This document shows, in pieces, positions 7,271 through 33,584 of a stretch of 64,000 nucleotides of DNA. The first letter of the stretch is position 1. Each line of letters starts with the position of its first letter. Under the pieces are notes generated by a model. The model saw nothing but the letters and a program-made list of their open reading frames with translations. It had not been told where the DNA came from and made no database searches. The stretch is from contig CAVYQE010000008.1 of the NCBI GenBank assembly GCA_963770565.1, forward strand, positions 161,972 to 225,971. The letters run 5' to 3'. The position numbers and the translations under genes were made by a program. This stretch comes from an uncultured Actinomycetota bacterium (GTDB lineage Bacteria > Actinomycetota > Actinomycetes > JAFAQI01).

Positions 7271-7795
7271 GTGAGCACCTTCGTGGACGCCGACGACGAG
7301 GCTGCGCTGCGCGAGTTGTACGACGCGCACGCGGGCGCCTTGCTGGCGTACTCGATGCGGCTGACCAACGGCGATCGCGGCCGGGCCGAGGACGTCGTTC
7401 AGGAAACGATGCTGCGGGCCTGGCGGCACCGAGAAGCCCTCGACGAGGCGCGCGGACCGGTTCGGCCCTGGCTGTTCACGGTCGCTCATCACGTGGCGAT
7501 CGACGCCCACCGAGCCCGTTCAGCGCGCCCGAACGAGGTCGGCGACGCGGTGCTCGCCACCGTCCCGGCCGCCGACGAGATCGACGCGCGACTCGACCGG
7601 CTGTTGATCGCCGACGCGATGGCCGCACTGTCGGCCGAGCACCAGGCAGTACTGGTCGAGACCTACTACCGCGGCCACTCGGTGGCCGTCGCAGCGGAGG
7701 CGCTGGGCGTCCCGCCCGGCACGGTGAAGTCACGGACTTTCTACGCATTGCGGGCGCTCAAGCTCGCGCTGGCCGAACGGGGGGTGACGACGTGA
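7271..7795 (+). CDS. ECF RNA polymerase sigma factor, SigL-like
   Basis: AEDVVQETMLRAWRH, WLFTVA, GVPPGTVKSRTFYALRALKLAL. Confidence 0.92.
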   Translation: MSTFVDADDEAALRELYDAHAGALLAYSMRLTNGDRGRAEDVVQETMLRAWRHREALDEARGPVRPWLFTVAHHVAIDAHRARSARPNEVGDAVLATVPAADEIDARLDRLLIADAMAALSAEHQAVLVETYYRGHSVAVAAEALGVPPGTVKSRTFYALRALKLALAERGVTT

Positions 7796-8445
7796 CCTGC
7801 GACGACACCGTTCTTTCGCTCGGGGTCTACCTCGTCGGGGCGCTCGACGCCCCGGAGCGCGCCGCGGTCGAGGCGCACCTGGCCGACTGCCCGACCTGCC
7901 AGGCGGAGCTGGCCGAGCTTGCCTCGCTGCCGTCGATGCTCGAGCAGCTGTCGATCGACGACTTCCCGCTCGAGCCGCTGGCCGCGCCGGAGGATCTGTT
8001 CGACCGGGTCGCCGCTAAGGCTCGCGACGAGGACCTGCAGCAGGCCCGGCGGACCGCTCATCGCTATCGCCGGCTGACTGCGGTTGCGGCTGCGGTGGTG
8101 GTGATCGCTGGTGGGAGCATCGGGGCGAGCGTCGCGCTGAACCACCACTCACGCCCGGCGCACGGGTTCTCGGCGACCCAGGGCCGGGTGACGATGCGGG
8201 TGACGCTGGCCGCGCAGACGACCGGCACCGGCCTGAAGGTCACCGTGTCCGGGCTGCCGCACGACGAGCACTGCACGCTGATCGCGGTCGCCAAGGACGG
8301 CAGCCGTGACGTGGCCGGTCGATGGGACGTCACCTACGCCGGCTGGGGGCAGGAGACCGGGTCGACCAAGATCACCCAGTCACAGCTGTCCCGGCTGGTG
8401 CTGTTGGGCACGACCGGCCAGCAGCTCGTGACCGTCAACGTCTGA
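7792..8445 (+). CDS. Zinc-binding anti-sigma factor (RslA-like, zf-HC2 + TM)
   Basis: YLVGALD..ER..VEAHLADCPTC (HxxxCxxC) and one TM segment; GTGA overlap with the sigma stop. Confidence 0.9.
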   Translation: MTCDDTVLSLGVYLVGALDAPERAAVEAHLADCPTCQAELAELASLPSMLEQLSIDDFPLEPLAAPEDLFDRVAAKARDEDLQQARRTAHRYRRLTAVAAAVVVIAGGSIGASVALNHHSRPAHGFSATQGRVTMRVTLAAQTTGTGLKVTVSGLPHDEHCTLIAVAKDGSRDVAGRWDVTYAGWGQETGSTKITQSQLSRLVLLGTTGQQLVTVNV

Positions 8446-24804: not shown

Positions 24805-26094
24805 ATGCGGTTCGCGCCGCCAAGCCGAGCGCTGATTGCCGCGCTCGCGCTCGGTGGCGCGCTTGCCGTTTCGGCCGTGCCTGCGGCCGCCGCGACCTCA
24901 TGCCCGACCGGCGACCCGTGCATCGCCGTGCATCTGCAGTCCGGCACGCAGTACGTCACGGCTTCGCAGATCACCGCGGAGGCAACGGCTGCGGCCGATG
25001 CAGGCGCGGCGAACGCGGTGCAGAACGTTCAGTACCTGTTCAGCGCCGGTGCAGGCGCCGGGCCGTTCGTCGCACTCGGGCTTTCGGTCAACGCCCTCTT
25101 GCAGAACCTGCTCGGTCCGACCGCGTTCGGTCAAGTGACGTTCACCGAGCTCACCCGACCGATCGACGGCAGCGAGTCGATCCTCCAAGCAAGCACCGGC
25201 GACCTGTCGGCGCCGTCGGCCTTCCTCGGCGGTCAGCTCCCGGTGTTCTGGGTCAACGGCTCCGAGATCGACTACACCCGGCCGCTGCGCGACGGCTCGG
25301 ACAACGCGGCGACCGATGACGCGATCCAGAGCGATCAGGGCGGCGCGCTCGACCTGTACGTCCACACCGGGCCGTTGCTCACCGTCACCGCACATGCGAG
25401 CGCAACGACGATCAAGGCCGACCAGGCCGTGACGTTTACTGCCAGCAGCTCCGGCGACTCGATCACGCCGGCCTATCGCTGGACCCTGTTCGGCAGCCCG
25501 CACCGGTTCGCCACCGGCCAGCGGGTGACCCACACCTTCGCAACCTCGGGGGAGTACGAAGTGCTGCTCAGCGCGGCCGGACCGGACGACTCGGCCGGCG
25601 CCGCCAGCCCGCTGTTCATCACCGTGGGCAGCGCCACCTCGTCACCGTCGAAGTCGCCGAGCCCGGGCTCGAGCGGCCCGCGGTCGCCGAGCACCAGCCC
25701 GGACCCGACCGCGAGCTCGCACCCGACGGCCACGCCCAGCGGCCAGGGGTCCGGTTCGCCGCCTCCGGGTGGGAGCGCGACCGACGGCAGTGGTCCGACC
25801 CCGAGCGCGGCGGCGAGCGGCTCGGTACGGCCGACCCCACCGGCCAACCCCGGTCAACTCCCGGTCGTCAGCGGGCGGCTGATCGGCGAGGGGGTGGCCC
25901 TGCTGACCACTCCCGGTGCATCGTCGGCGCAGGTTCAGGGTGGCGCGATCCCGGCAGCGCGAATGTCGACCGGCTGGCGCGTGACGACCGCGACCGGCTC
26001 GGTGCTGGCGATAATGCTGTTGTTCGGGTTGGGTGCCGCCCGCGAGCTGCGCTGGTCGAGAACGGGGTCGAAGACGTGGGTGCGACGGCATTGA
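24805..26094 (+). CDS. Secreted PKD-domain protein with S/P/T linker and C-terminal TM anchor
   Basis: VTFTAS...YRWT...VTHTFATSGEYEV (PKD-like); low-complexity linker; hydrophobic tail followed by basic residues. Confidence 0.72.
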   Translation: MRFAPPSRALIAALALGGALAVSAVPAAAATSCPTGDPCIAVHLQSGTQYVTASQITAEATAAADAGAANAVQNVQYLFSAGAGAGPFVALGLSVNALLQNLLGPTAFGQVTFTELTRPIDGSESILQASTGDLSAPSAFLGGQLPVFWVNGSEIDYTRPLRDGSDNAATDDAIQSDQGGALDLYVHTGPLLTVTAHASATTIKADQAVTFTASSSGDSITPAYRWTLFGSPHRFATGQRVTHTFATSGEYEVLLSAAGPDDSAGAASPLFITVGSATSSPSKSPSPGSSGPRSPSTSPDPTASSHPTATPSGQGSGSPPPGGSATDGSGPTPSAAASGSVRPTPPANPGQLPVVSGRLIGEGVALLTTPGASSAQVQGGAIPAARMSTGWRVTTATGSVLAIMLLFGLGAARELRWSRTGSKTWVRRH

Positions 26095-26101
26095 GGACAC
26101 C

Positions 26102-26746
26102 GTGACCCACGGCATCGAGCAGGCAATCTTCGACGTTGCCCGATCACTCGAGGTCCCAGTGCTCATCCTCGCTCTGCTCGCCCTCGCCGCGGTGATCGTC
26201 GAGATCGGCGCGTTCGCGGTCGAGTTGAGGAATCGGCAGCAGCGTCGGTTCGCGGCGGTCGCCGCCGCAGCGGCTGACGCCCGCAAGGCGATTGCCGACG
26301 GCGACCGTGGCGCGGCGACCGCGACGCTCAGCGAGGTGGCCTGGAGCGCGGCGATGGCAGAGACGCTGAAGACCATCGCCGAGCAAGCCGGCGAGTCGGG
26401 AGCGGATACCCGGCTGGCCAAGGCGCTCGCCGACTTCGACTTCGACTCCCAGCGCCGTCTCGCGCGCACCAGGCTTCTGGTCCGGGCCGGTCCGGCGCTC
26501 GGCCTGATGGGCACTTTGATCCCGTTGTCGCCTGCGCTCGAAGGGCTGCGCAACGGCAACACGACAGTGCTCAGTCAGAACCTCCGAGTTGCCTTCAGCG
26601 TGACCGTCCTCGGCCTGCTTGTTGGCGCGATCGCCTTCGGGATCTCGCTCTACCGCGACCGGATGTACGGCCAGGACCTCTCCGACCTCGAGTACGTCGC
26701 CGCCGTACTCACCGATGACCGGCCGGCGCCGGGGGTGCCAGCATGA
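26102..26746 (+). CDS. MotA/TolQ/ExbB proton-channel family protein
   Basis: GPALGLMGTLIPL...L, LRVAFSVTVLGL; RBS GAGGA. Confidence 0.88.
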   Translation: MTHGIEQAIFDVARSLEVPVLILALLALAAVIVEIGAFAVELRNRQQRRFAAVAAAAADARKAIADGDRGAATATLSEVAWSAAMAETLKTIAEQAGESGADTRLAKALADFDFDSQRRLARTRLLVRAGPALGLMGTLIPLSPALEGLRNGNTTVLSQNLRVAFSVTVLGLLVGAIAFGISLYRDRMYGQDLSDLEYVAAVLTDDRPAPGVPA

Positions 26747-27066
26747 TCAAGGTCACGCCGCGGGCCCGACTGCGCGAGGACCGGGCCGGGGATCCGCTCG
26801 ACGGTCTGGTCAACCTCTTCGACCTCGGCATCGTCCTGGCGGTCGCGTTCCTGCTTGCCGCGCTCGCCTCGCTCAACCTCACGAAGGCGTTCACCAAGAA
26901 CGGCCTTCATCCGGTGGCGCCAGGCACGATCACGATTGCTCCCGGCCAGACCGTGCACACGTTGCCTTCGCCCGGTGCCCGGACGATCGGTCCCGGGGTG
27001 AAGGTGGGCACGGTCTACCGGCTGCCGTCGGGCAAGCTCGTCTACGTGACCGGCCCGTCCAAGTAA
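26743..27066 (+). CDS. DUF2149-like protein (ExbD/MotB-like single TM with Asp)
   Basis: DPLDGLVNLFDLGIVLAVAFLL...GTVYRLPSGKLVYV; ATGA overlap with the MotA-like gene. Confidence 0.8.
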   Translation: MIKVTPRARLREDRAGDPLDGLVNLFDLGIVLAVAFLLAALASLNLTKAFTKNGLHPVAPGTITIAPGQTVHTLPSPGARTIGPGVKVGTVYRLPSGKLVYVTGPSK

Positions 27067-27087
27067 CGGCTCGCCCGGAGCGATGCG

Positions 27088-27807
27088 GTGAAGTTCATCT
27101 GGCGAGGGCTGCGGCAGGCGTGGCACCTCATCGTCACCGGCGATCCCAGTCTCCGCCATCTCACCTGGATCACCCTCGACGTCGCGGTCGTGGCGACTGT
27201 GGTCGCGGTGGTCATCGGGTTGCCGCTCGGTCTGGCGCTCGGGCTCGGCCGGTTCCGGGGCCGGCAGGCCGGCATCATCCTGGCCAATGCCGGCCTTGGC
27301 CTGCCGCCGGTGATGGTCGGATTGGTGTTGGCGCTGTTGATGTTTCCGGCCGCGCCACTCGGGCGGTTCCATCTGCTGTTCACTCTGCACGGGGTCTACA
27401 TCGCGCAGTCGCTGCTGTCGTTCCCGATCATCGTGGCGCTCAGCTGCTCGGCGGTGCGCGCCTTGCCACCCGGCCTGATCGAGCAGGCCAGGGCGTTCGA
27501 CGCCGGCCGGCTGCAGATCTGGGCGCTCGCGGCCCGCGAGGCGCGGGTCGGGATCCTGACCGCGGTGATCGCGGCGGTGGGGTCGGCGCTCTCCGAGGTC
27601 GGCGCCGTCGTGCTGGTCGGCGGCAACATCTATGGCAACGACCAGACGCTCGCCAGCGCGACGATCTTCGCCGTCGACCAGGCCCAGTTTGGCTACGCGA
27701 TGGCGATCGGCATCATCCTGCTCGGGCTGATCCTCGTGGTGGCGGCCGTGCTGACCTTGATCCAACAGGGTTCGGCGCACCGGGTCCGGATCCGGCCACC
27801 GTCATGA
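27088..27807 (+). CDS. tupB: Tungstate ABC transporter permease (TupB-like)
   Basis: GLPPVMVGL, FPIIVAL, GSALSEVGAVVLVGGNI. Confidence 0.85.
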   Translation: MKFIWRGLRQAWHLIVTGDPSLRHLTWITLDVAVVATVVAVVIGLPLGLALGLGRFRGRQAGIILANAGLGLPPVMVGLVLALLMFPAAPLGRFHLLFTLHGVYIAQSLLSFPIIVALSCSAVRALPPGLIEQARAFDAGRLQIWALAAREARVGILTAVIAAVGSALSEVGAVVLVGGNIYGNDQTLASATIFAVDQAQFGYAMAIGIILLGLILVVAAVLTLIQQGSAHRVRIRPPS

Positions 27808-28763
27808 GCGCGCCGATCGCCGCACCGCGGCCGCTGCTCCGCGCGACCTCGCTCGGCGTCCGCCGTGGTGGTGCCGACGTCCTGCACGGGGTCAGCCTCG
27901 ACGTCGGGCCGGGCGAGGTGCTGGCGGTGCTCGGACCGAACGGCGCCGGTAAGAGCACCCTGCTGGCCGCCCTGGGCGGTGGGCTGAAGCCGTCGACCGG
28001 CACGGTCGAACGGGCCGGCCGGGTGGCAACCGCGATGCAGTCACCCGACCTCGCCCGCCGCAGCGCGCGGGCCAACGTCGAGGTGGCACTCGCCTGGTGG
28101 GGCGTGTCGAGACGCGAGCGCCGGGATCGCGCCGCTGAGGCGCTCGCGGCCATGCAAGCCGACCATCTGGCCGACCGGCAGACCACCGCCATGTCCGGTG
28201 GTGAACGAAGGCGGGTCCACATCGCGCGTGCGCTCGCGTTGCGGCCCGACGTCTTGCTGCTCGACGAGCCGTTCGCCGGGCTCGACCCGGTCAGCCGGGG
28301 CGCACTGCTCGACGACACCGCGTCCGCGCTCCGGGGCGGCTCCGGCGCGGTGGTGCTCGTCGTCCACGACCGGGCCGAGGCGTGGGCACTTGCGAACCGG
28401 CTGGTCGTACTCATCGATGGCCGGATCGCCGCGGAGGGCCCGCCGCGCGAGGTGCTCGAGGCACCGCCGAGTGCCGGCGTCGCGCGGTTCCTGGGCTTCA
28501 CTGGCGAGTTCCGTGACGGGACCGAGCTGGTGTTCACCCGGCCCAGCCAGGTGCACCTCGACCCGCAGGGCGAGATCGCGGCCACCGTCGTACGGCTGAT
28601 CCCGTTCGAGGACGGTGCGCGCGCCGAGCTGGAGACACCGACCGGGCACCTGTCGGCGATCGTGCCGTATCCGGGGCCGAGCGTCGGCGACGCGGTCCGG
28701 GTCCGCGTCGACGCGTGCGTGCGGTTTCCGGTCGATCACCAATATGGTGAGGCCCGTGGCTGA
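27804..28763 (+). CDS. ABC transporter ATP-binding protein (TupC-like)
   Basis: GPNGAGKST, MSGGE, LLLDEPF; ATGA overlap with the permease. Confidence 0.9.
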   Translation: MSAPIAAPRPLLRATSLGVRRGGADVLHGVSLDVGPGEVLAVLGPNGAGKSTLLAALGGGLKPSTGTVERAGRVATAMQSPDLARRSARANVEVALAWWGVSRRERRDRAAEALAAMQADHLADRQTTAMSGGERRRVHIARALALRPDVLLLDEPFAGLDPVSRGALLDDTASALRGGSGAVVLVVHDRAEAWALANRLVVLIDGRIAAEGPPREVLEAPPSAGVARFLGFTGEFRDGTELVFTRPSQVHLDPQGEIAATVVRLIPFEDGARAELETPTGHLSAIVPYPGPSVGDAVRVRVDACVRFPVDHQYGEARG

Positions 28764-29130
28764 GCTGCTCCGCATCGGCGAGGTGTCGAAGGCGCTCGGC
28801 GTCAGCATCGACACCCTGCGCCGATGGGAGGCCGACGGCCGGGTGAAGTTCGTCCGGCGCGGCAATCAGCGGATGCTGCCGGCCGCCCAGCTCGGCAAGC
28901 TCCTGCGGTCTCAGACCGGGTCGACCAACAAGTCCAGTGCCCGCAACCGGCTCACCGGGGTGGTGGTCTCGGTCGACCGCGACGGGGTCATGGCCAAGGT
29001 CGAGATGGCGTGCGGCGACTTCCGGATCGTGTCGTTGATGAGCCGGGAGGCGGCCGACGATCTCAAGCTCGAGCCGGGCGTGTTCGCGACCGCGGTGGTC
29101 AAGGCGACGAACGTGATCATCGACCGGTGA
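28756..29130 (+). CDS. MerR/excisionase-type HTH + TOBE molybdate/tungstate-responsive regulator
   Basis: LRIGEVSKALGVSIDTLRRW plus SSARNRLTGVV...VVKATNV. Confidence 0.9.
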   Translation: MAELLRIGEVSKALGVSIDTLRRWEADGRVKFVRRGNQRMLPAAQLGKLLRSQTGSTNKSSARNRLTGVVVSVDRDGVMAKVEMACGDFRIVSLMSREAADDLKLEPGVFATAVVKATNVIIDR

Positions 29131-29162
29131 GCTCGCCGCGCTGGTAAACGCGGGCGGATCGG

Positions 29163-29750
29163 TCAGACCGGCTGGGCGACCGGCTCGGCCGGCTCGAGGG
29201 CCGGCGCCGGTGCCGACGGCTCCGCCTCGGGCGGCGCGGAATGCGTCACCCGCATCACCAGGATGACCGCGCCGAGGAGCAGCACCAGGTCACCGACACT
29301 CAGCATGTTGCGCAGCGGCAGCCAGGACGGCGTGACCATGATGTCGCCGAGCCAGCTCAGGTGCGGGTGGGCCAGCACGCCGGAGTTCTGGAAGCCGACC
29401 CGCGGCTTGATGCCGGCCGCACGGAGCGCGTGGGCCGTGGCGGGCAGCGTGCCGTCGTTGACCGCGATCGCGAGTGCATTTGAGCCGGCTCCGAGCGCGA
29501 TCACGATCATGCCGGGCACGGTCCGGTTGACCCAGACCACGGCGGCCAGCATGGCGTAGGTCGCAAGGTGCAGGCCGACCGCGACCGGGTGCGGCATCGC
29601 CGGCCAGATCGTGATCACGAAGACCTGCACGGCGAGGGCCGCGATCGCCAGCGGCACCCATCGGAGCTTGATCTCGGCCAGCCGGCGCAGGTTGCCGCCG
29701 GTGACGGGGACGAGTACGACGATCAGGAGCGCGCAGAATCCGAGGAACAT
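29163..29750 (-). CDS. DUF5317-like membrane protein, candidate aspartic peptidase
   Basis: GGNLRRLAEIKLRW, G..SN..AI.VNDG.LP, LSWLGD, LSVGD; starts 1 nt after the GGDEF-EAL stop. Confidence 0.8.
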   Translation of the reverse strand: MFLGFCALLIVVLVPVTGGNLRRLAEIKLRWVPLAIAALAVQVFVITIWPAMPHPVAVGLHLATYAMLAAVVWVNRTVPGMIVIALGAGSNALAIAVNDGTLPATAHALRAAGIKPRVGFQNSGVLAHPHLSWLGDIMVTPSWLPLRNMLSVGDLVLLLGAVILVMRVTHSAPPEAEPSAPAPALEPAEPVAQPV

Positions 29751-29751
29751 G

Positions 29752-31779
29752 TCACAACGCCTGCAGTTTTGCGCGCGCGGCCACGGCCGGCGGCCTGGTC
29801 CGCTGGCCCAACCAGGCGTTCAGCGCGTCGGCGGTAAGCGGCCGAGCCAGTCGGTAGCCCTGAATCGTGTCGCAGTCGATCGAGGTGAGCAGCGCCCACG
29901 CCTCGTCCGTCTCGACGCCTTCGGCCGTGACCGAAAGCCCGAAGCGGTGGCCCAGGTCCACGATCGCGCGCACGATGATCTCGTCCTTGGGGCTCTCCCC
30001 GAGTTCCGCGACGAACGACTTGTCGATCTTGATCTCGTCGACCGGAAGGGTCTTCAGATAGGCCATCGACGAGTAGCCGGTGCCGAAGTCGTCGATGGCG
30101 ATCTTGCAGCCCATCCGCCGCAGTTTCGCGAGCTGACGAAGATTCTGCTCGCGCTCGCTGACCATGTCCGACTCGGTGATCTCGAGGGTCAGCCATTTCG
30201 GGTCGACGCTGCCACGCACTAGTGCGGCCTCGATCCGATCGATGAACCGGACGTCGTGCATCGTTCGCGGGGAGACGTTCATCGACAGCCCGATCTCTTG
30301 ACCGGACCGATGCCAGATGGACAGCTGGTCGAGCGACTGCTCGAGCAGCGCGTACGTCAACGTGTCCAGCATCCCGGCGCCCTCGGCGATATCGAGGAAC
30401 TCGCCGGGGGCCAGCACGCCGGCATGCGCGTGCCGCCAACGGGCGAGCGCCTCGACCCCGACGATCTCGCCGGTGACCGCGTCGCACATCGGCTGGAAGA
30501 GCGGGAAGACCTCGCCGGACACGATGCCGCGATGAAGGTCGCCGACCAGCGAGAGCCGCTCGACCGAGTGGTCGTCCCGGGTGCCGTCGTAGACCATGAT
30601 GCTGCCGCGCGCGGACTTGGCGTCGTACAGCGCGACGTCGGCTCGTTTGAGCAGCAGGTCCTCGTCTGCGCCGTCGCGCGGGGCAAGGGCGATGCCGACA
30701 CTGCACTGCGCCGACAGGTCGGCGCCGGCCATCGGGAACGTGGAGTCGAACGCCTCCCGCAGCCGCGCGGCCACGTCGACGGCGGCCGCCTCGCTGTCGA
30801 TGTGGTAGGCGAGGATGGCGAACTCGTCACCACCGAGTCGGGCGATGAAGTCGCCGTTTCGCAGCGCTCCTCGCAACCGCGAGGCGACCTCGACCAGCAG
30901 CCGGTCACCGGCGTAGTGGCCCAGGGTGTCGTTGATCTCCTTGAAGTGGTCGAGGTCGACCAGCATGACCGCGACCGGCACCTGCGCGAGGTCCTCGCAG
31001 GCCTGCTTCAGGCGCAGCAGAAGCGAGGTGCGGTTGGGCAGCTCCGTCAGCGCGTCGTGCAGCGCCTCGTGCTCTCGTTCGGAGGCCAGTCGCGCGCTTC
31101 GGTGCACGGCGATCAGCGGGACCATGAGCAGTGGCAGCGCGGCCACCGACCACGCGAGCGACTGCGCGACGACGGGCGCGAGGGCGAGGAGTACGCCGTC
31201 GGTCGGCAGGTGGGAGCGGAAATCCGCGAAGACGAGGCGACGAAGCGGCATTCGGGTGGCGATCGCGACGGCAACCCCGGTGAGGCCGTTGTTGAGGACG
31301 AAGAACGCGGCGCAGCTCAGCAGTGCGGCCGGAAGCTGCGTCGGGGTCAGCGCGGTGGGATGCCCGAACGCGGACTGACCGATCAGAGCCACGAAGACCG
31401 CACGGGTCGCGAGCAGCGCGATCGTGTACTGGCTGACGTTGAAGACCAAGCGGTCCCATGCGCGGCGTTTGCGCGCCTCGTCGACGAACAGCGCGACCGC
31501 CTGGGCAGCGCAGGCAACCCCCGGATCGGTCAGCAGCAGAAGTGCGACGGCAAGGGTGCTCGAGATCGACAACTCGTCGCCGGCGTCGGCGCCGCGCGAG
31601 ACCGGAATGGGCCGCAGCTCGCCGATGATCAGGAAGGCGCAGGCAACGACAACGGCGGGGAGCCGGCCACCGATGTTGGTCCAGGGAACGCGCAGACAGG
31701 CATAGGCAAGAAGCGGCACCCCGAGCAGCGAAACCGCGACCATATAGGCGCGAAGCCATGATCGCTTGGGTGCCGTCAC
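29752..31779 (-). CDS. Membrane-sensor diguanylate cyclase/phosphodiesterase (about 7 TM-GGDEF-EAL)
   Basis: About 230-aa hydrophobic N-terminus; HDALTELPNR, RNGD I-site, GGDEF, EAL, IDDFGTGYSS. Confidence 0.95.
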   Translation of the reverse strand: MTAPKRSWLRAYMVAVSLLGVPLLAYACLRVPWTNIGGRLPAVVVACAFLIIGELRPIPVSRGADAGDELSISSTLAVALLLLTDPGVACAAQAVALFVDEARKRRAWDRLVFNVSQYTIALLATRAVFVALIGQSAFGHPTALTPTQLPAALLSCAAFFVLNNGLTGVAVAIATRMPLRRLVFADFRSHLPTDGVLLALAPVVAQSLAWSVAALPLLMVPLIAVHRSARLASEREHEALHDALTELPNRTSLLLRLKQACEDLAQVPVAVMLVDLDHFKEINDTLGHYAGDRLLVEVASRLRGALRNGDFIARLGGDEFAILAYHIDSEAAAVDVAARLREAFDSTFPMAGADLSAQCSVGIALAPRDGADEDLLLKRADVALYDAKSARGSIMVYDGTRDDHSVERLSLVGDLHRGIVSGEVFPLFQPMCDAVTGEIVGVEALARWRHAHAGVLAPGEFLDIAEGAGMLDTLTYALLEQSLDQLSIWHRSGQEIGLSMNVSPRTMHDVRFIDRIEAALVRGSVDPKWLTLEITESDMVSEREQNLRQLAKLRRMGCKIAIDDFGTGYSSMAYLKTLPVDEIKIDKSFVAELGESPKDEIIVRAIVDLGHRFGLSVTAEGVETDEAWALLTSIDCDTIQGYRLARPLTADALNAWLGQRTRPPAVAARAKLQAL

Positions 31780-31849
31780 CGTGATTCCTGCCCGTGAGTG
31801 AGGTGGATGTCAGGCGTCCGCGTGGGCGACGGACCGCCGAACAACGTTG

Positions 31850-31933
31850 CTAGAACTTGTGACCGGCTTGGATGGCCGATCCGCGCGAACCGACATCGTC
31901 GCCGATTCCCTTGAATGTGGTTACCGTTTCCAC
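31850..31933 (-). CDS. Small peptide 2 (27 aa) METVTTFKGIGDDVGSRGSAIQAGHKF
   Basis: Manual translation; GTG start 6 nt after AAGGGGG RBS; same AG-x-KF-stop ending as peptide 1. Confidence 0.6.
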   Translation of the reverse strand: METVTTFKGIGDDVGSRGSAIQAGHKF

Positions 31934-31976
31934 GGCTAACCCCCTTCTCGTGGTCTGAGTTTCAGGAAGTAGCCGA

Positions 31977-32063
31977 TCAGAACTTCCAGCCGGCACCGCC
32001 GACTGTGACAACAGTCACGACAGCGCTCGCTGCGATGGCGAATCGGGTCAGCATGTTGCGCAT
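31977..32063 (-). CDS. Small peptide 1 (28 aa) MRNMLTRFAIAASAVVTVVTVGGAGWKF
   Basis: RBS GGAGGGGGTG; alternative ATG at 32069; basic N-region + hydrophobic core + AG-WKF. Confidence 0.75.
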   Translation of the reverse strand: MRNMLTRFAIAASAVVTVVTVGGAGWKF

Positions 32064-32211
32064 AGACATCCACCCCCTCCCGCGCGAGATTGGTCTTCTT
32101 AGGATCGCAACCACCGGGTAGGAACACACTCGCCCGTCCGGCCCAAGCGGATAGGCCATCGGGCCGAGCGACACCACCCGCTACCACGGACCGATCCGCT
32201 ACGGTTCCGCC

Positions 32212-32517
32212 ATGACGGTGAAGCTTGTGGTTCTCTACACCCAGCCTGACGACGCGGACGGCTTCGACGAGCACTACCTCGGCGTACACGGGCCGCTGGT
32301 CCAGAGCATTCCCGGGCTGTTGCGCTTCGAGGGCGCGCGCTTCGTCGCGGCACCCGATGGTGGCGAGCAGACCTACCACCGGGTCGCCGAGCTCTACTTC
32401 GACGACCCCGCCGCGCTAGAGGCGGCGCTGGGCAGCGACGAGGGCAAGGCGACCGGCGCGGACTACCGGCAGATCGCACCGCCCGGCTCGCGGATGTTCG
32501 TCGCGGCCGTCGACTAG
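32212..32517 (+). CDS. EthD family reductase
   Basis: KLVVLY..P.D...FDEHY...HGPL...IPGL, AELYFDD. Confidence 0.88.
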   Translation: MTVKLVVLYTQPDDADGFDEHYLGVHGPLVQSIPGLLRFEGARFVAAPDGGEQTYHRVAELYFDDPAALEAALGSDEGKATGADYRQIAPPGSRMFVAAVD

Positions 32518-33584
32518 GCCGGGCCGTTTGCCGCGAGCGTGGCGAGCAACTCGAACGAGCGCAGCCGGTCTGCTGGGTCGAACGTTGACGTCGTCACCAT
32601 GAGTTCGTCGGCCGCGGTCGACTCGAGCAGCGCCGTAATACGCCTGCCCACGGCCCCCGGCGAGCCGATGATCTGGGTGTCGAGCCGCCCGTCGACGAAC
32701 TCCCGTTCGGCGGGGGAGTACTCGTACGACGCGGTCTCCTCCGGAGTCGGCGTCGTGGATGGCCGTCCGGCCCGAAGCCGCAGGAACCCGAGCGCGCCGG
32801 GCTCGGCAAGCGTGCGCGCGCCTTGGTCGGTGTCGGCGCAGAGGACGGCTGCGCAGACCATGGCGTAAGGCCGCTCAAGGGCCGCCGACGGGCGGAACCT
32901 CGCGCGGTACACCGCAAGGGCCGGTTCGGTGTTCGCCGGGCTGAAGTGGTGGGCAAAGGCGAACGGAAGCCCCAACATCGCGGCGACCTGGGCGCTGTAG
33001 TCACTCGAGCCGAGCAGCCACAACTGCGGCGGGTTGCCCTTCCCGGGGACAGCGGTGACGCCGGCCATCAGGTGTCCGGCCGGCCACTGACCGCTGAAGA
33101 AGCCAAGCAAGTCGGTCAGCTGGGCGGGAAACTCGTCCGCAGTCAGCGCGTCCACCGATCGCCGGAGCGCGTACGCCGTGAGCTGGTCGGTGCCGGGTGC
33201 CCGCCCGATCCCGAGATCGACCCGACCCGGGTGCAACGCCTCGAGCATGCCGAACTGCTCGGCGACGACGAGCGGAGCGTGGTTGGGCAGCATGACGCCA
33301 CCCGATCCGATCCTGATCGTCGACGTCCGCGCCGCGATCGCGGCCAGCAGTACGGCCGGCGAAGAGCTCGCAATGCCCGGCATGTTGTGGTGCTCGGCGA
33401 CCCAGAGCCGGTGATATCCCAGCGTCTCGACCCGCTCGGCGAGCGCCAAGGACGCCTGCAGGGCCTCGCCGACCGAAGATCCGGTTGCCACCGGAGCCAG
33501 GTCGAGAACCGACAACGGGACCCGCCGGCCGTCCGGCGCCGCGATCGAAAGGCCGGCGTCAGCGGGCCGGGTGGGGATCGTCAT
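32514..33584 (-). CDS. LLM-class flavin-dependent monooxygenase (luciferase-like group 1)
   Basis: LSVLDLAP, WVAEHHNMPGIASS, GSGGVMLPNH, LGIGRAPG. Confidence 0.92.
   Translation of the reverse strand: MTIPTRPADAGLSIAAPDGRRVPLSVLDLAPVATGSSVGEALQASLALAERVETLGYHRLWVAEHHNMPGIASSSPAVLLAAIAARTSTIRIGSGGVMLPNHAPLVVAEQFGMLEALHPGRVDLGIGRAPGTDQLTAYALRRSVDALTADEFPAQLTDLLGFFSGQWPAGHLMAGVTAVPGKGNPPQLWLLGSSDYSAQVAAMLGLPFAFAHHFSPANTEPALAVYRARFRPSAALERPYAMVCAAVLCADTDQGARTLAEPGALGFLRLRAGRPSTTPTPEETASYEYSPAEREFVDGRLDTQIIGSPGAVGRRITALLESTAADELMVTTSTFDPADRLRSFELLATLAANGPA

Follow-up and report, generated by a model that had tools for sequence, protein, structure and literature searches.

Agr signalling comprises the peptide AgrD, the membrane peptidase AgrB, and the polytopic membrane sensor AgrC, and MgrB is a small membrane protein that modulates the sensor PhoQ. 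Another membrane peptidase, signal peptidase II (LspA, family Peptidase A8), has a periplasmic beta-cradle after its first transmembrane segment (TM1). LspA crosses the membrane four times with both ends in the cytoplasm, relies on a catalytic dyad of two aspartates (Asp124/Asp143 in Pseudomonas aeruginosa), and cuts before the lipidated (diacylglyceryl) Cys at position +1 of the lipobox (PMC9360617). Here, we describe a gene for a small membrane protein of the DUF5317 family, which lies on a stretch of 64,000 nucleotides (hereafter called the window) from an uncultured Actinomycetota bacterium (positions 161,972 to 225,971 of contig CAVYQE010000008.1, assembly GCA_963770565.1). This protein appears to be the third part of a module that also includes a micro-peptide and a MASE9-type membrane sensor, and our tentative reading, to which we give somewhat less than an even chance, is that it acts on the peptide, most likely through cleavage near a conserved Gly-Ala by a pair of invariant Asp residues.

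The protein is a genuine member of its family, as had been proposed in a preliminary description of the locus that called it DUF5317-like. PF17248 matches with an E-value of 4.7e-24 (85.5 bits at a cut-off of 25) in an alignment of query residues 26-166 with profile positions 1-151 of 151, and the same domain is carried by 120 of 120 near-length homologues among the matches listed. A search of 1.84 billion representatives returned 2292 relatives at E<=0.001, most of the family being stand-alone proteins of ca. 190 amino acids (aa), and a profile search found DUF5317 in 152 of 401 sampled Actinomycetota genomes (our genome tallies for DUF5317, LspA, and MASE9 include up to eleven genomes flagged as unpublished, from which no locus was drawn). 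An NCBIfam scan of the protein gave no family, and a full-text search for "DUF5317" gave no paper naming it in the library searched.

The conservation of individual residues far exceeds chance. All 112 family representatives that were aligned have N75, G87, N91, N98, G135, D136, G153, and D154, and all 51 genes drawn from diverse loci have N75, G87, N91, N98, P103, D136, S151, G153, and D154, with G160 nearly invariant in the latter set. The motifs quoted in the preliminary description are all present, i.e., GAGSN (residues 87-91), VNDG (97-100), WLGD (133-136), and SVGD (151-154) followed by LVLLLG, and the two Asp that it had singled out, D136 and D154, stand 18 residues apart as stated and are retained without exception in both sets. 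Other residues are not conserved: D99 of VNDG is Gly in 38 of the 51 diverse-locus genes, and N148 is Asn in just 25 of them. The spacing of the Asp pair likewise differs among DUF5317 sequences through loop indels in the alignment of the 51 genes.

The start codon of the DUF5317 gene, an ATG, follows one base after the TGA stop of a sensor gene (coordinates of all features in Table 1) whose product matches EAL (1.2e-73), GGDEF (4.6e-43), and, below the cut-off of 24.3 bits, MASE9 (2.3e-4, 21.6 bits). We compared 40 loci picked for family diversity (two batches of 20) and nine loci of close relatives, in which neighboring genes were called with our own open reading frame (ORF) heuristic (longest ORFs, with a third-position G+C filter in high-G+C DNA) and then scanned against Pfam. 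A gene for an HD-GYP protein (HD_5 type), a GGDEF-EAL protein, or a membrane histidine kinase lies no more than two called genes away from DUF5317 in 14 loci of the first batch and 16 of the second (30/40), and many of these sensors carry a MASE9 match. All nine close-relative loci keep the pair in the gene order of the window. The association spans these three types of output as well as several gene orders (same-strand downstream, divergent, and convergent) and loci with a G+C content from 34% to 74%, and in several of them stop and start codons are one base apart or overlap.

Across 400 Actinomycetota genomes, DUF5317 and MASE9 occur together in 108 and are both missing in 197, while 52 have only MASE9 and the others only DUF5317. 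No MASE9 was found in five large genomes of one family (f3). Among 14 named control genomes, each of the two was found only in Thermus thermophilus and Thermotoga maritima, which suggests that their partnership extends beyond Actinomycetota. MASE9 (PF20972) was defined by Galperin and Chou, who proposed that it binds a ligand within the membrane and whose listed outputs include HD-GYP and GGDEF-EAL, as here (bioRxiv 10.1101/2021.11.05.467447). The main text of this preprint contains neither "DUF5317" nor "neighbor", though its supplementary figures might show gene neighborhoods, and the passages of it that we read do not mention an upstream micro-peptide. We also considered that DUF5317 might be a piece of MASE9 itself, but this was rejected because its hhalign score against 33 sensor N-termini (12.1) does not exceed that of the reversed control (12.6).

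Upstream of the sensor gene lie two small ORFs, each behind a purine-rich ribosome-binding run. The first of them, peptide 1, is kept in this position in every related locus with enough upstream DNA. Its comparison with five relatives shows 16, 6, and 57 substitutions at codon positions 1, 2, and 3 (49 synonymous and 18 non-synonymous changed codons), so that peptide 1 evolves as a coding sequence. A hidden Markov model (HMM; 32-residue version) that was seeded by the window peptide alone and iterated on the first set of loci gave 20 matches in 17 of 31 loci there and 8 matches in 7 of 20 loci of the unseen second batch. A control set of 31 LspA loci with a total of 105 kb gave no match, also after retraining, and the retrained version has 28 matches around DUF5317. 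With a longer tail (34 residues) or a stricter cut-off, the iterated model did not get beyond 8 matches. Looser scans for the C-terminal pattern or for hydrophobic small ORFs directly upstream of the sensor, which had no false-positive control, added ten more loci.

The 26 peptides that we aligned are 24-33 residues long and share a basic N-terminus, an invariant R9, a hydrophobic spacer with a fixed length of 15 residues, an invariant G25, and a nearly invariant A26, i.e., R-x15-G-A, beyond which only 3-6 residues follow in a tail of the form x-x-[KR]-[WF]. For 21 of the 28 HMM-supported peptides, an ORF of at least 150 aa starts on the same strand no more than 400 nucleotides downstream, and all 21 of these ORFs encode sensors (10 HD_5, 8 GGDEF-EAL, and 3 kinases). 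No Pfam or NCBIfam family covers the peptides, and weak matches were limited to the lipoprotein-signal-like model LPAM_1 (3/26) and, once, the Phr-like model PhrC_PhrF. The recurrence of the DUF5317-peptide pair across diverse Actinomycetota supports the dedicated link between them that the preliminary description had postulated, as does the complex model described below.

Peptide genes directly upstream of MASE9 sensors often come as two or three tandem copies that are identical or nearly so in the printed translation. Peptide 2, which lies between peptide 1 and the sensor gene of the window, has no hydrophobic segment, and its AGHKF end echoes the AGWKF end of peptide 1. Loci L055-L060 have ORFs with the same AGHKF end at the same place. 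Peptide 2 may represent either a leader ORF or a tandem copy that has diverged, and its membership in the module is uncertain.

The AlphaFold2 (AF2) model of the DUF5317 protein has high confidence (predicted local distance difference test score (pLDDT) of 94.4) and consists of five long helices (residues 2-16, 32-48, 54-74, 81-97, and 152-169), which places the N- and C-termini on opposite sides of the membrane given their odd number. The loop of ca. 50 residues between helices 4 and 5 contains all three short strands of the model (102-104, 136-139, and 149-151). D136 begins one of these strands 38 residues past helix 4, and the first turn of helix 5 includes D154. According to the positive-inside rule, loops 17-31 and 75-80 would be cytoplasmic and the big loop that bears the Asp pair would face outward.

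When modelled together with peptide 1, the DUF5317 protein is predicted to bind it with a median interaction prediction score from aligned errors (ipSAE) of 0.62 (runs at 0.59, 0.62, and 0.75), compared to 0.00 for the best of three controls, with a partner pLDDT of at least 71 and runs that agree in at least 88% of contacts. In this model, the peptide helix lies in a groove among TM2, TM3, TM4, and TM5 and contacts both D136 and D154. The predicted interface comprises Q42, Y65, G87-G89, N91, N122-S123, G135-D136, 148-151, and G153-D154 on the side of DUF5317 and residues 12-30 of the peptide. Since residues 157-158 of TM5 contact peptide residue 21, the helical register would bring D154 close to G24-G25 of the peptide.

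We therefore consider a module with three parts, i.e., a single-helix micro-peptide of 24-33 residues (here peptide 1), a MASE9-type sensor whose output is the turnover of cyclic di-GMP (c-di-GMP) by GGDEF-EAL in the window and an HD-GYP domain or histidine kinase elsewhere, and the polytopic membrane protein DUF5317. The peptide would be inserted with its N-terminus inside and its C-terminus outside and would dock in the TM2/TM3/TM4/TM5 groove, which would set its Gly-Ala and short outer tail beside the invariant N91, S151, D136, and D154 on the outer side of the membrane. There, DUF5317 would act on the peptide, most likely by a cut near Gly-Ala with the two Asp as the catalytic pair. Such cleavage would set the level of intact or trimmed peptide that MASE9 senses inside the membrane and hence the c-di-GMP of the cell, with the micro-peptide as a membrane-borne signal or regulator of the sensor. 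An Asp-pair peptidase seems to be the most economical choice because it would explain why the polar cluster is invariant and persists even where the peptide has no basic residue in its tail, as well as the fusions of DUF5317 to exporters described below. The signal-peptide look of the peptides, these fusions, and a local LspA-like motif at D154 likewise support a role as a peptidase or in export.

Several observations weigh against this reading. An HMM-supported peptide was found in just 24 of the 51 DUF5317 loci, 10 of the 40 diverse loci have no sensor of the three types close by, and neither does a second DUF5317 gene in the window genome. In 43 of the 400 genomes, DUF5317 occurs without a MASE9 match, and the sampled genomes are related so that the two-by-two table of DUF5317 and MASE9 overstates independence. 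Conversely, among 16 MASE9 loci from genomes without a DUF5317 profile match, peptide-like ORFs were seen in eight (two by HMM and clear relatives in six more by a hydrophobicity scan), several of them as two or three identical tandem copies. DUF5317 is thus not the obligatory processing enzyme of the peptide; the bond between peptide and sensor is primary, and DUF5317 is a frequent third partner. As for the complex model, 58 of 80 solved complexes attain the mark of the prediction tool, as do 2 of 110 mismatched pairs. This calibration is rough here because we used our own alignments, and the controls were unrelated 30-residue proteins rather than hydrophobic helices, so that any membrane helix might dock.

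In addition, no known peptidase family or fold was detected for DUF5317 by Pfam, PDB, Foldseek, or VIA-align. The family profile had no match to PDB sequences at E<=10, Foldseek against the PDB listed two unrelated rows for the whole model (E>6), and VIA-align against 48,161 chains found generic helical hairpins (best Z 6.7). Neither of these structure searches matched a transporter fold, and the ESM Atlas gave no usable named look-alike. GxGD-type intramembrane aspartyl peptidases (presenilin/SPP and the prepilin peptidases of family A24) carry Y-D and G-x-G-D motifs in adjacent TM helices, which S-x-G-D of DUF5317 resembles only loosely. The query had no Pfam match to these families at E<=0.1, though no dedicated profile comparison was made, and they are absent from the 25 Pfam families that are most often matched by the 112 members at E<=10.

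A serious if doubtful competitor of the peptidase reading is that DUF5317 serves as a non-catalytic co-receptor, scaffold, or chaperone that holds the micro-peptide and perhaps MASE9, with the Asp pair binding Lys/Arg of the peptide or a cation. Binding is all that the complex model shows, no peptidase fold or family was found, the conserved [KR] beside the aromatic residue of the tail could pair with D136 and D154, and the tuning of sensor kinases by small membrane proteins is well established (e.g., MgrB with PhoQ, or SafA). However, both Asp are equally invariant where the adjacent peptide tail has no Lys/Arg at the usual position (L048, L050, and L068) and in a DUF5317 copy with no peptide nearby (the paralog in L003). 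The cluster of N91, N98, S151, D136, and D154 also resembles an active site or an ion site more than it does one salt bridge, and tandem identical peptide genes suit a precursor that is consumed better than a stoichiometric subunit.

It is quite improbable that DUF5317 belongs to the LspA family as a genuine but far diverged member, with TM4-loop-TM5 corresponding to TM3-loop-TM4 of LspA and D136/D154 to its catalytic dyad, as the preliminary description had implied by calling it a repurposed LspA-like peptidase. We aligned 46 LspA sequences (the one of this genome, 30 from diverse Actinomycetota, and 15 close ones), which confirmed the invariant residues of LspA (D and K of TM1, N-x-G-x-x-F, G-G-A-x-G-N-x-x-D-R, and F-N-x-A-D) and has V-x-D and F-N-x-A-D...G among its conserved motifs. 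Three motifs of DUF5317, i.e., G-x3-N in a helix running from inside to outside, the Asp of the strand, and S-x-G-D-x-x-[IL]-x-x-G at the opening of the last helix, follow in the same order and the same inferred membrane orientation as in this alignment. Peptidase_A8 (PF01252) does not match the query at E<=0.1, but it weakly matches 4 of the 112 family members (best E 0.029, below the 25-bit cut-off) and ties with DUF2269 for second place among 55 other weakly matched Pfam families. With an HMM of LspA, 12 single DUF5317 members score at least 8.1 bits, always over the same stretch, compared to one reversed sequence.

In the profile-profile comparison by hhalign, the best stretch (score 24.4, probability 8.5%, 27 columns) sets D154 on the second catalytic Asp of LspA, but the reversed LspA profile scored higher (25.6, probability 11.7%), so this signal is at noise level, and a relaxed alignment brings neither N91 nor D136 into register with LspA motifs. 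The likeness to FNxAD...G around D154 (ca. 27 residues), slightly above the reversed control in the single-sequence comparison, is real but short. Because the similarity might be confined to the catalytic core, we also modelled residues 78-172 (TM4-loop-TM5) alone from a 50-sequence alignment (pLDDT 81.4). For this core, Foldseek listed four unrelated rows (E>6) and the best Z of VIA-align against the same 48,161 chains was 4.5. The Foldseek rows at E<=10 for the whole model and those for the core did not include LspA, and it was absent from the best 50 of VIA-align for either one, though absence from such lists does not exclude a family.

The model with five helices instead of four, together with the absence of most LspA-invariant residues, argues against membership in this family. 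DUF5317 has no counterpart of the TM1 D/K, of the N-x-G-x-x-F block, or of D-R after G-N, and no beta-cradle between TM1 and TM2. Only G-x3-N and the last motif have one, and in the latter an invariant Ser stands in for the Asn of FNxAD and Gly for the Ala. The distance from N91 to D136 amounts to 45 residues, compared to 18 between the corresponding motifs of the LspA in this genome, an ordinary enzyme that is encoded separately on another contig and scores 113.6 bits with Peptidase_A8. The preliminary description had further seen a lipobox-like site with Trp in place of Cys at the end of peptide 1. However, this column is variable across the 26 peptides, in which R9, G25, A26, and the terminal [KR][WF] are conserved instead, and none of them contains a Cys as a residue for lipid modification. 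Kinship with LspA or a shared fold is thus not supported, and since the LspA-like motifs fail their controls, the gene should not be annotated as signal peptidase II.

What DUF5317 does share with LspA is the small polytopic format, two invariant Asp at what is probably the outer membrane face, the local motif polar-x-small-D-x-x-[IL]-x-x-G at the start of the last helix, and a putative substrate that is short and shaped like a signal peptide with its basic N-terminus, hydrophobic core, and small residues. The dyad of LspA is placed at the outer-leaflet ends of its last two helices. In DUF5317, D154 opens the last helix but D136 sits on a strand, and in the complex model both contact the same seven-residue tail of the peptide. 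If DUF5317 is a peptidase, it would by analogy work like LspA, with an Asp pair in the outer leaflet and a signal-peptide-like substrate, without demonstrable membership in the family.

DUF5317 is recurrently fused in frame to the N-terminus of major facilitator superfamily (MFS) exporters of the MFS_1/MFS_3 (EntS) type, i.e., in 6 of 20 longer representatives and in all eight "longer" matches of a further set (Table 1). No fusion to HD-GYP, GGDEF, or another signaling domain was seen among these eight matches, which is weak evidence for absence. The fusion protein in L040 also carries C-terminal HEAT repeats. Together with the invariant polar residues inside the membrane, these fusions could indicate that DUF5317 is an accessory or gating part of small-molecule or short-peptide transport with an indirect link to peptide and sensor. 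We regard this as distinctly improbable, given that most DUF5317 proteins stand alone at ca. 190 aa, no transporter fold was matched, and the peptide docks with high model confidence, while fusion to MFS proteins would fit a processing domain on an exporter equally well, analogous to C39 domains on ABC exporters.

Genes for acyl-CoA carboxylase or enoyl-CoA hydratase recur beside DUF5317 (L040, L044, L049, L051, L052, L072, L074, L075, and L081), and SecA adjoins it in L034, L037, L041, and L077. The second DUF5317 gene of the window genome (contig C2; L083, about 7576-7902 on the forward strand) has no sensor or peptide nearby and adjoins genes for biotin carboxylase and enoyl-CoA hydratase. 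These neighbors, along with the relatedness of the sampled genomes, would fit an inherited gene order without shared function in which DUF5317 has an unrelated role, e.g., in lipid or envelope metabolism, but this is highly improbable in view of an association that holds across three sensor outputs, several gene orders, and the whole range of G+C content, the tight or overlapping gene junctions, and a complex prediction that passes its controls.

HD-GYP sensors in the compared loci are paired, with a first gene of strong HD_5 match (often along with MASE9) and a second, overlapping gene of much weaker HD_5 match that is possibly a degenerate, non-catalytic copy (L034, L036, L037, L063, L069, L073, L074, L075, L081, and others). 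In L047, L048, L050, and L068, DUF5317 adjoins a cytoplasmic histidine kinase of the PdtaS type, to which L047 and L048 add a small sigma-70 region-4 protein. This arrangement may be local synteny. Past the 3' end of DUF5317, toward lower coordinates, the window (24805-29130) encodes a protein that combines a PKD domain with a long tail rich in Ser/Pro, a MotA/ExbB-like protein and its DUF2149 partner, an ABC permease along with an ATPase ORF, and a MerR-HTH/TOBE regulator that is convergent with DUF5317. Rfam gave no RNA family at E<=1 over 28500-33000. In a search of sequencing runs, no RNA run was listed, and the 20 DNA runs listed contain at most 0.37 of the words.

Table 1. Features of the DUF5317 locus (positions in the window) and of compared loci and family representatives (given under their own designations).
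Feature	Position or designation	Strand	Details
DUF5317 gene	29163..29750	-	195 aa; ORF, PF17248 match, AF2 model
Codon of invariant Asp136	29343..29345	-	112/112 and 51/51; start of strand in outer loop; peptide contact in complex model
Codon of invariant Asp154	29289..29291	-	112/112 and 51/51; first turn of TM5, motif S-x-G-D-x-x-[IL]-x-x-G; sole stretch aligning to LspA (second catalytic Asp); peptide contact in complex model
Codon of invariant Asn91	29478..29480	-	112/112 and 51/51; TM4, motif G87-x3-N91; residues 87-89 and 91-92 in predicted peptide interface
Membrane sensor gene	29752..31779	-	675 aa; MASE9-like N-terminal membrane domain, GGDEF, and EAL (Pfam)
Peptide 1	31977..32069	-	30 codons and stop; ends GGAGWKF; Shine-Dalgarno-like GGGAGGGGG in front
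Peptide 2	31850..31933	-	27 codons and stop; ends AGHKF; GTG start after GAGAAGGGGG
MFS fusions among longer representatives	P0292, P0309, P0348, P0357, P0359, P0374		
MFS fusions	P0391-P0398		8/8 "longer" matches
MFS fusion in a locus	L040:3937-6531	-	
MFS fusion in a locus	L049:5881-7683	+	
Tandem peptide copies	L085 2215, 2329	+	
Tandem peptide copies	L087 3225, 3338, 3451	-	
Tandem peptide copies	L089 3237, 3344	-	
Tandem peptide copies	L042 6786, 7169	+	
Tandem peptide copies	L046 4268, 4479	+	

MASE9 is widespread on c-di-GMP enzymes and kinases, and it now has two candidate partners, i.e., the micro-peptide encoded by the first gene of the sensor operon and DUF5317, which is possibly an Asp-dyad peptidase that handles this peptide. 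Should the two Asp prove catalytic, DUF5317 would add one more family, without a match among solved folds, to the intramembrane peptidases, and peptide signaling would be tied directly to c-di-GMP. Even if DUF5317 only binds the peptide, the trio offers a system for the question of how signals inside the bilayer are read by a polytopic sensor. The boldest version, which we think unlikely, is that DUF5317 represents a new family of intramembrane aspartyl peptidases that has its own fold and matures or destroys the membrane-anchored peptide of 24-33 residues, and that the product is the in-membrane ligand of MASE9. The resulting Agr-like circuit would set c-di-GMP or kinase output and be common across Actinomycetota, with Thermus and Thermotoga as further carriers if the control genomes are a guide.

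Among known systems, C39 peptidase domains sit on ABC exporters of double-glycine peptides, and DUF5317 at the N-terminus of an MFS exporter is similar in arrangement, as is the conserved G-A or G-G-A of the micro-peptide. However, the transporter is of another class, DUF5317 is an integral membrane domain, and the "leader" of the micro-peptide is a hydrophobic helix rather than an amphipathic cytoplasmic leader. The peptide itself resembles MgrB as a single helix of a few dozen residues whose gene accompanies that of a membrane sensor, on which it probably acts in the membrane, but this gene opens the sensor operon and can occur in tandem copies, and the trio adds a third, polytopic protein with an invariant Asp pair. 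With Agr, the trio shares the same three types of parts encoded together, i.e., a short precursor peptide, a polytopic membrane protein of small size, and a sensor with a bundle of membrane helices as its input domain, and its own peptide gene sometimes comes in tandem copies. We claim no sequence relation to Agr. The peptides of the trio have only 24-33 residues with 3-6 past Gly-Ala, the invariant residues of DUF5317 include Asp and not Cys/His, and the output of the trio is c-di-GMP turnover by GGDEF-EAL or HD-GYP proteins as often as it is a kinase.

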